Shown here piece by piece: positions 2,473-3,246 of a stretch of DNA of 64,000 nucleotides (position 1 is the first letter of the stretch; each line of letters starts with the position of its first letter). Under the pieces are notes generated by a model. That model made no database searches. It was not told the DNA's origin and saw only the letters and a program-made list of their open reading frames with translations. This DNA is from Escherichia coli (lineage in GTDB: Bacteria; Pseudomonadota; Gammaproteobacteria; Enterobacterales; Enterobacteriaceae): NCBI RefSeq assembly GCF_030013595.1, contig NZ_CP122768.1, one strand, 5' to 3'. The position numbers were made by a program, and so were the translations under genes.

Positions 2473-3246
2473 ATGGATATTACTGAGTTTCCTTCTGGAG
2501 TAATTGAACACCTTGGCTGGTATGTATACCGATTGATTGATCCTAGGGACGGAAGCACCTTCTATGTAGGGAAAGGCAAAGGTAACCGCGTATTTGCCCA
2601 TATGCGCGGTGAAGTGGCAGCGGCTGATGATGACGAGTTACTGAGCAACAAGCTAAAGCAAATCAGAGAAATAAGATTAGCGGGACTTGAAGTTATCCAC
2701 GTCATCCATCGACACGGAATGACTGATGAAAAGACGGCGTACGAAGTTGAAGCAGCACTTATTGATGCCTACCCTGGGTTAACGAATATCATGAATGGTG
2801 CTGGCAGCAATGAATTCGGCGCCGCGCATGTCAAAGAGTTGATAGCAACATATCAACCCGAAACCATAACATTTCATCATAAAGCATTAATGATTTCCGT
2901 TAACAGAAGTGCAAAGGATTCAGAGCTTTATGATGCGGTTCGATTTAGCTGGCGCATTAATGTCTCTCGCGCCAGCCAAGCAGAAGTCATTCTTGCTACT
3001 GTAAGGGGGATCGTTCGAGGGGTTTTCATTGCTGATAAATGGCTCAAATCAACACGTGAAAATTTCCCTACGATGAAATACTGGGACGAAGATCCTGACT
3101 TTGAGGCAACACAAAGTTCTCGCTATGGTTTTGAAGGTCGAGAAGCCCCACCTGAAATAGCAAATCTTTATCTTGGAAAAAAAATACCAGATGAATTAAG
3201 AAAAAAAGGAGCTATGTCCCCGGTCCGTTACTCACCTAATTTTTGA
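2473..3246 (+). CDS. GIY-YIG nuclease-domain protein with an uncharacterised C-terminal domain
   Basis: N-terminus [27 protein letters not shown] matches the GIY...YIG core, with downstream R and E residues. ATG at 2473 is preferred over the listed TTG start at 2422. Confidence 0.75.

Follow-up and report, generated by a model that had tools for sequence, protein, structure and literature searches.

The 64,000-nucleotide window analyzed here belongs to contig NZ_CP122768.1 of the Escherichia coli assembly GCF_030013595.1, and near its left end it carries a stand-alone nuclease gene at the tail end of a decayed e14-family prophage. The gene is intact: an open reading frame at 2473..3246 of the plus strand starts with ATG at 2473, encodes 257 amino acids, and terminates with the stop codon at 3244-3246. 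A first-pass annotation, made from the sequence without database searches, had described a GIY-YIG protein with a C-terminal domain of no nameable family. Its coordinates and protein are right; the GIY-YIG string that it quoted corresponds to residues 17-43, and the C-terminal strings are found as well. The gene and its immediate flanks comprise the following features.

2473..3246, plus strand: CMoRE / PD-T4-3 coding sequence (open reading frame; PADLOC; phrog_5356; 254/257 residues identical to 9U75)
2473..2832, plus strand: N-terminal GIY-YIG nuclease part, which also holds R39, E91/E93, N105, V92, and L96 (Pfam; residue numbering of the published protein)
2626..2637, plus strand: codons of the acidic lid loop D52-D53-D54-E55 (sequence; DDDD in O157:H7, DDDE in APEC O1)
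2851..3243, plus strand: C-terminal modified-cytosine sensing domain with linker, approximately residues 127-257 (co-crystal data of PMC12923530; profile search)
2411..2439, plus strand: candidate promoter TTGTGA-17 nt-TAATAT (8/12 consensus positions; below the scan threshold)
2242..2281, plus strand: upstream hairpin (fold z -3.6); it duplicates the element found after pin and makes up the inner end of a repeat of about 100 nucleotides
3264..3305, no strand assigned: hairpin between the convergent stop codons of CMoRE and pin (fold z -4.0 on the plus and -4.8 on the minus strand)

The product of this gene is almost certainly CMoRE (PD-T4-3), which has been published as a single-gene type IV restriction endonuclease that depends on modified cytosines and acts against T-even phages; we set the probability at about 95%. 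The PADLOC search that had been proposed as a check returned the PD-T4-3 model (PDLC04031), which covers the protein end to end, residues 1-256 being aligned with profile positions 1-255 of 256 (E 2.2e-140). The 257-aa protein is also matched over its full length by phrog_5356. In a sequence search of PDB, it is identical in 254/257 positions to 9U75_A, the CMoRE of E. coli O157:H7 (E 1e-172); with 9U7U_A, the CMoRE of APEC O1, the identity is about 87%, in both cases over the whole length. As expected of a single-gene system, there is no co-oriented partner gene nearby. The RefSeq name of the product is 'LEM-3-like GIY-YIG domain-containing protein', and an NCBIfam scan of the 257-aa protein yields no family. 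We assign the gene to CMoRE/PD-T4-3 because the defining features, namely the profile, the motif, the lid loop, the oligomerization residues, and the sensor domain, are all present. This settles the annotation of the 'LEM-3-like GIY-YIG' gene as CMoRE/PD-T4-3, an anti-T-even restriction enzyme, in a copy that looks functional. The system itself is already known, having been named, characterized, and crystallized, and there is nothing new here on the protein itself.

PD-T4-3 originally came to light in a functional selection, with E. coli ECOR68 as its source (Vassallo et al., 2022; PMC9519451), as related in PMC12923530; the text of PMC9519451 mentions a GIY-YIG nuclease once, without detail of its context. 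It was renamed CMoRE in a study of the proteins from E. coli O157:H7 (9U75, 9U8D; WP_000355475.1) and APEC O1 (9U7U, 9U7Z), entitled 'A bacterial defense system targeting modified cytosine of phage genomic DNA' (Nat Commun 2026, PMC12923530). Expressed from the native promoter, CMoRE decreases the plating of T2, T4, and T6 by approximately five orders of magnitude, and CMoRE-bearing cells survive a high multiplicity of infection (PMC12923530); this is therefore direct defense and not abortive infection. The enzyme, once purified, both binds and degrades DNA that carries 5-hydroxymethylcytosine (5hmC) or glucosyl-5hmC, but not DNA with cytosine or 5-methylcytosine (5mC); two modified cytosines are required, and the cleavage, described as CN11/N9G, leaves 2-nt 3' overhangs (PMC12923530).

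The same study (PMC12923530) links these properties to particular residues. Point mutants of the GIY-YIG domain are inactive. This domain has an extra tyrosine (Y17, Y19, Y31) and a 15-residue acidic loop, situated between alpha2 and alpha3, that lies over the active site and is autoinhibitory. When four acidic residues of the loop are replaced with alanine (the 4A mutant), specificity is lost, ordinary DNA is attacked, and the protein becomes toxic. CMoRE is a tetramer, and both the V92S/L96S substitution and deletion of the beta1-beta2 loop abolish oligomerization and defense. In co-crystals, 5hm-dCTP is bound to the C-terminal domain, its 5-hydroxyl being hydrogen-bonded to the oxygen in Y127's main chain. 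The authors report no sequence or structural relatives of the C-terminal domain.

Two independent studies point in the same direction. Deletion of PD-T4-3 from its native host NILS69, a clinical isolate, makes the strain sensitive to Tevenvirinae phages, and a Capnocytophaga homolog with 48% identity degrades the DNA of T4 and Mu but not that of T4-GT7. Of the two readings initially offered for the gene, the preferred one, an anti-phage nuclease encoded by one gene, with modified DNA sensed by its C-terminal domain, is thus supported by experiments on proteins 98.8% and about 87% identical to it.

The domain structure of this copy agrees with the published one. The GIY-YIG call is confirmed by Pfam LEM-3_GIY-YIG at residues 28-110 (E 2.4e-14; 54 bits at a cut-off of 27), and the match to the generic GIY-YIG family PF01541 stays under its cut-off. 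The tyrosine numbering of PMC12923530 is identical here, and the catalytic arginine (R39) and glutamate (E91/E93) were placed by conservation. All published residues that can be placed by number are kept, that is Y17, Y19, Y31, D52-D53-D54-E55, R80, V92, L96, and Y127, as are the candidate catalytic residues R39, E91/E93, and N105. The three-tyrosine motif 'GIYxY-YIG' reads W16-Y17-V18-Y19-R20 ... F30-Y31-V32-G33, and the autoinhibitory loop, A49-A-A-D52-D-D-E55, contains four consecutive acidic residues. V92 and L96, which oligomerization requires, are found here and do not vary among the homologs, and the beta1-beta2 region is identical to that of 9U75.

The C-terminal half indeed resembles no nameable family, as had been noted at first sight. 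A Pfam scan of this half in 17 diverse homologs gave no family match, and the C-terminal profile, when run against PDB, retrieves only two CMoRE chains (9U75, E 2.5e-54; 9U7U, E 9e-53), the next hit having E 0.34. Residues 128-254 align with residues 134-259 of 9U75 at that E-value of 2.5e-54, which identifies the sensor domain. A housekeeping family in this part of the protein would have spoken for another function; the Pfam and PDB profile searches contain none.

Compared with the O157:H7 protein, this copy has three substitutions, D55E, K169Q, and H197N, all in variable columns of the family alignment. In column 169, the Q seen here is the commonest residue; in column 197, N is both the family consensus and the residue of APEC O1; and E55 is also found in APEC O1. 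By analogy, this copy probably has the same activity as the O157:H7 and APEC O1 proteins.

Conservation was assessed in 81 sequences, the window protein and the translations of 80 homologous loci from a collection with one genome per species. Y17, Y19, Y31, R39, R80, V92, L96, E93, N105, Y127, and W160 are invariant in this set, E91 is kept in 80/81, and R217 and Y253 vary little or not at all. The acidic run D52-E55 is variable within the family, unlike the other published residues. The set spans Enterobacterales, Planctomycetota, Acidobacteriota, Chloroflexota, Actinomycetota, and other groups, and 250 relatives occur among the species-representative genomes. Over the full length, the relatives in Planctomycetota, Acidobacteriota, Chloroflexota, Actinomycetota, and others (loci L012-L083) share 55-60% of their residues with the protein of E. 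coli. Within E. coli, the gene is present in 854 of 5426 complete genomes (16%), and the gene together with 170 bp upstream is at least 95% identical in more than 800 genomes. The junction of CMoRE with the invertase gene pin, as seen in the window, is found in 567 of the complete genomes, O157:H7 strains included. In other taxa, the homologs are linked neither to pin nor to tail-fiber genes, a single weak match to pin being observed in the 80 loci; therefore, linkage to pin is a feature of the E. coli prophage and not a property of the family.

The neighbors of the homologs in other taxa were read by eye from lists of open reading frames and N-terminal sequences. They include integrases, serine recombinases, a CP4-type island, and proteins with SIR2-like or reverse-transcriptase-like N-termini, and such contexts fit island-borne defense cargo. 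A conserved non-mobile context, which would have counted against a defense role, was not seen in this reading: no housekeeping neighborhood is shared between the loci.

Full-length homologs with both domains and 38-45% identity are also encoded by jumbo phages of approximately 250-285 kb that infect Serratia, Pectobacterium, Pantoea, Pseudomonas, and Klebsiella. Examples are Serratia phage Moabite (6406-7161) and Pseudomonas phage OBP (158703-159449) (records H34-H50), and these proteins are labeled as homing or unknown nucleases. One possible role is action against rival phages whose cytosines are modified. The striking conservation of the CMoRE family, including its full-length presence in jumbo phages, is possibly a useful point.

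On near-identical relatives, others have demonstrated how the enzyme works. A homotetramer (a dimer of dimers) binds DNA via the C-terminal domains. These domains recognize 5hmC and glucosyl-5hmC, but not cytosine or 5mC, and one dimer reads two modified cytosines that lie about 21 bp apart. The N-terminal GIY-YIG domains then cleave between both sites (CN11/N9G), leaving 2-nt 3' overhangs, while the acidic 15-residue lid that covers the active site repels ordinary DNA, so that self-damage is avoided. In this way, the T-even genomes are destroyed shortly after injection while the cell lives, as in direct defense. The present copy would work alike, with a weak promoter of its own driving the gene and a hairpin on each side insulating it.

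Several known systems are close to CMoRE in function or in fold. The protein of the window shares with the O157:H7 and APEC O1 proteins the length, the two-domain architecture, the GIYxY-YIG motif, the acidic lid, the oligomerization residues, and Y127. The CMoRE-pin junction is likewise the same as in O157:H7 genomes; the difference is that here the gene lies in a prophage remnant flanked on the right by an IS10-like element, a truncated integrase gene, and icd. Type IV restriction enzymes are nucleases that have no cognate methyltransferase and attack modified DNA only. Among the annotated or family-scanned neighbors within a few kb, there is no methyltransferase gene; the dependence on a modified substrate is taken from the published orthologs.

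EcoKMcrA of K-12 is also a single-protein type IV modification-dependent nuclease, and it occupies the same slot directly beyond pinE in e14. Both are fusions of a sensor and a nuclease directed against modified-cytosine DNA. They have no sequence similarity, and the orientation calls for a correction to the initial comparison: mcrA runs in the same direction as pinE, whereas CMoRE and pin converge. McrA has a C-terminal HNH nuclease, in contrast to the N-terminal GIY-YIG domain of CMoRE, and its specificity is for 5mC and 5hmC; it is not known to act on glucosylated DNA.

The PvuRts1I/AbaSI family is similar to CMoRE in being specific for 5hmC and glucosyl-5hmC, and PvuRts1I cuts at a similar fixed distance. 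The folds are unrelated, since PvuRts1I combines a PD-(D/E)XK nuclease with an SRA-like sensor and CMoRE joins a GIY-YIG nuclease to a sensor domain for which no relatives can be detected. The symmetric recognition by CMoRE has been described and the enzyme compared with PvuRts1I as a tool for 5hmC mapping (PMC12923530). With I-TevI, the Seg proteins, Eco29kI, and Hpy188I, CMoRE shares the GIY-YIG catalytic fold and the catalytic tyrosine, arginine, and glutamate; unlike them, it has the GIYxY tyrosine, the 15-residue acidic lid insertion, and a tetrameric structure. In addition, the modification-sensing domain replaces the sequence-reading DNA-binding domain of GIY-YIG homing and type II enzymes.

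The gene had been called monocistronic, and indeed its closest real neighbors lie on the opposite strand, pin (3304..3858, minus strand) being convergent. Its higher AT content is also evident, with a GC content of 0.43 vs. 0.54-0.59 for genes of the baseplate, tail, and head. The hairpins noticed on both sides correspond to stable folds at approximately 2242-2281 (z -3.6) and 3264-3305 (z -4.0/-4.8). They are two copies of one element of about 26-35 nt: 26 nt of the upstream hairpin form a direct repeat with 3270-3295 at 88% identity, and a fuzzy search gives a longer match that contains an indel. The two hairpin copies span 2247-2281 and 3264-3301. The hairpin at 3264-3305 is plausibly a bidirectional terminator. 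Matches of the hairpins to the Rfam family CssrB were partial and sub-threshold (32 and 20 bits; gathering score 76), and the hairpins were not accepted as a small RNA.

Of the promoter-like sequence that had been noted, only a weak form stands. No sigma-70 consensus was found upstream on the plus strand, and a weaker TTGTGA-17-TAATAT is present at 2411-2439. This coincides with a conserved upstream block of the orthologs in eight other enterobacterial genomes; the -35 TTG is kept in all nine enterobacterial loci (9/9), and a TAnnnT -10, like the whole pattern TTGnnA-17-TAnnnT, in most of them. Because the consensus scan found nothing relevant, we infer the promoter from cross-genus conservation only, and 2411-2439 may be considered a weak candidate.

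Among the alternatives, the one that survives best, although it is unlikely, is an intact CMoRE gene that is a silent relic in a decaying prophage and gives no protection in this host. A number of observations weigh in its favor and against an active defense gene. The sigma-70 scan of the plus strand upstream of the gene was negative, so that there is no strong promoter; the Shine-Dalgarno sequence of this copy is weaker than in orthologs from other genera; and neither hairpin has the canonical stem and T-run of a terminator in a consensus scan. The surrounding prophage has lost its early region and bears further signs of decay, namely the IS10-like insertion, the truncated integrase, the split tape measure gene, and a frameshifted neighbor, and because of this decay the gene could be silent. 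Activity from native promoters differs between alleles, the APEC O1 gene being weak (PMC12923530). Finally, the assayed proteins are 98.8%, about 87%, and 48% identical to this one, and the present allele differs from them in combining Q169 with E55 and N197. On the other side, the open reading frame is full length, every functional residue checked is present, and, as described above, the gene with its upstream region is nearly uniform in several hundred genomes. Furthermore, PD-T4-3 is active from the native locus of NILS69 and also from its native upstream sequence on a low-copy plasmid. That this copy may be expressed poorly is the one live caveat to CMoRE acting as a defense gene here, and the NILS69 result argues otherwise.

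The initial alternative of a selfish homing-type nuclease fares much worse. A free-standing GIY-YIG endonuclease of the I-TevI/Seg type would cut a specific site to spread its own gene. For it, one could cite a weak hit (E 0.0022) to the 'homing endonuclease' family phrog_314, the annotation of full-length jumbo-phage homologs as 'putative homing nuclease', and the two copies of the gene in some genomes, e.g., Providencia heimbachae and a Phycisphaeraceae metagenome-assembled genome. However, the labels of the phage homologs rest solely on the GIY-YIG domain, and near-identical proteins recognize base modification, not a long specific site, and protect cells. The C-terminal half is a 5hmC sensor with no Pfam match, so that no NUMOD, IENR1, or HTH family, and hence no DNA-binding module of the homing type, was found there. 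Nor was an intron or intein context seen, the flanks being the prophage-end repeat and pin and not a split host gene. Taken together, these data make a homing endonuclease highly improbable. Least probable of all, and hardly conceivable, is a housekeeping or repair nuclease (UvrC, Slx1, or LEM-3-like) that came to lie in a prophage by chance: it is suggested solely by the Pfam and RefSeq names, and is contradicted by the presence of the gene in only 16% of E. coli genomes, its character of AT-rich cargo at a prophage end, neighbors that differ between taxa and look island-borne by eye, the lack of an NCBIfam housekeeping family, and the published biochemistry of modification-dependent phage restriction. 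Nor is a fixed place in the chromosome throughout Enterobacteriaceae or a repair phenotype of deletion seen.

The position of CMoRE in the prophage deserves separate consideration. The sequence of about 100 nt at approximately 2180-2285, upstream of the gene, is found in 5386 of 5426 E. coli genomes, with a median of 3 and a maximum of 9 copies. Since this repeat lies upstream and pin downstream, CMoRE is situated between the two. In both contexts inspected, the repeat stands at a prophage end, in Qin between ydfJ' and ynfT-ydfK-pinQ, and in the other case between sitD and a block of DinI and tail-fiber genes; PGAP sometimes labels it as a 'capsid protein' pseudogene.

That CMoRE occupies the slot where e14 carries mcrA was seen correctly at the outset. 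The homology with e14 breaks off at window 3303, where pin has its stop codon; past this point, K-12 e14 has mcrA (locus L002, 14347-15180) and the window has CMoRE. Among the sampled strains, to which the comparison of slots applies, ETEC4085 has a 936-aa SIR2-family protein (L085, 1007-3817), and JNEC-KY208 and 99E2750 a 215-aa hypothetical protein (L084 and L086, 3303-3950). In isolate 2-101, CMoRE instead adjoins a lambdoid remnant with gpJ and tail-fiber assembly genes. The match breakpoints fall at window 3267-3304, which is the junction where the cargo differs. A single copy of the hairpin directly follows the pin stop codon in loci with other cargo, and K-12 e14 has none.

A tentative explanation, which we consider possible rather than probable, is that the slot, from the hairpin at the pin stop codon to the prophage-end element of about 100 nt, is a recombination-delimited cassette site at which defense genes are swapped among e14-family and other prophages. 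If so, the cargo of the cassette would comprise McrA, CMoRE, the 936-aa SIR2 protein, and small genes of unknown function, the duplicated hairpin on both sides of CMoRE would be a scar of cassette exchange, and the slot may be undescribed. The replacement of McrA, also a modified-cytosine nuclease, by CMoRE at the same prophage position is a tidy example of swapping of defense cargo.

To the right of CMoRE, the following features of the prophage and its border are recognized.

3304..3858, minus strand: pin, a Din-family serine invertase (Pfam Resolvase and HTH_7; 96.5% nucleotide identity to K-12 e14 pinE; BLAST)
3920..5792, no strand assigned: invertible tail-fiber P segment (20-nt inverted repeats at 3920-3939 and 5773-5792, 95% identity; BLAST blocks vs. 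e14)
24354..25562: IS10-like DDE transposase, 402 aa, between the phage HNH/terminase genes and the integrase gene
25605..26519: N-terminally short integrase, 304 aa, next to icd
26633..27883: icd

The prophage belongs to the e14 family, as its terminase fragment, jayE-ymfQ-stfP, and pinE match K-12 e14 at 96.5-97%; the counterpart of pin is annotated as pinE in matching genomes. The P segment contains Gp53-like_C, two Caudo_TAP (tail-fiber assembly) domains, and Collar, and provides alternative C-termini of the fiber. Beyond it, YmfQ/Mu-Gp48-like, baseplate J, sheath, tube, head, terminase, and HNH genes extend to about 24.1 kb. A duplicate of the icd 3' end (icdC), which could have marked the prophage boundary, was looked for, and the window contains none. 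The prophage is decaying and defective, because its early region is missing.

The P segment is oriented oppositely to that of the K-12 e14 reference (plus/plus vs. plus/minus BLAST blocks), and the expressed fiber is therefore partly StfE-like. Inversion of the e14 segment is known to yield StfE2, which blocks T2 adsorption (2025 NAR, PMC12529663).

Some minor features can also be mentioned. The tape-measure gene is split into two open reading frames (339 and 255 aa; 11761-13593), vs. one gene of 1833 nt in strain 0H26. The adjacent AT-rich sequence (GC 0.39) contains a 176-aa open reading frame (11139-11669) that is matched by neither Pfam nor PADLOC and may be a moron within the tail module. 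At the left end of the window, the region 1-1233 (minus strand; GC 0.33-0.36) holds a gene frameshifted after about 141 codons, the intact form of which encodes a 488-aa hypothetical protein in 0H26 (L003, 5768-7234). This protein has no Pfam family and a faint PADLOC match to LmuA (E 0.0036) in its N-terminal region only; the frameshifted gene may be another decayed defense candidate. A 129-aa open reading frame at 1549-1938 (minus strand) has a signal-peptide-like N-terminus, MKYCYLIILSLTISSAQA, and no Pfam or PADLOC match. The homology to strain T16R ends at window 2092, and leftward of this point T16R encodes a 424-aa protein with a RelA/SpoT domain (PADLOC PDC-S33, E 2e-8).
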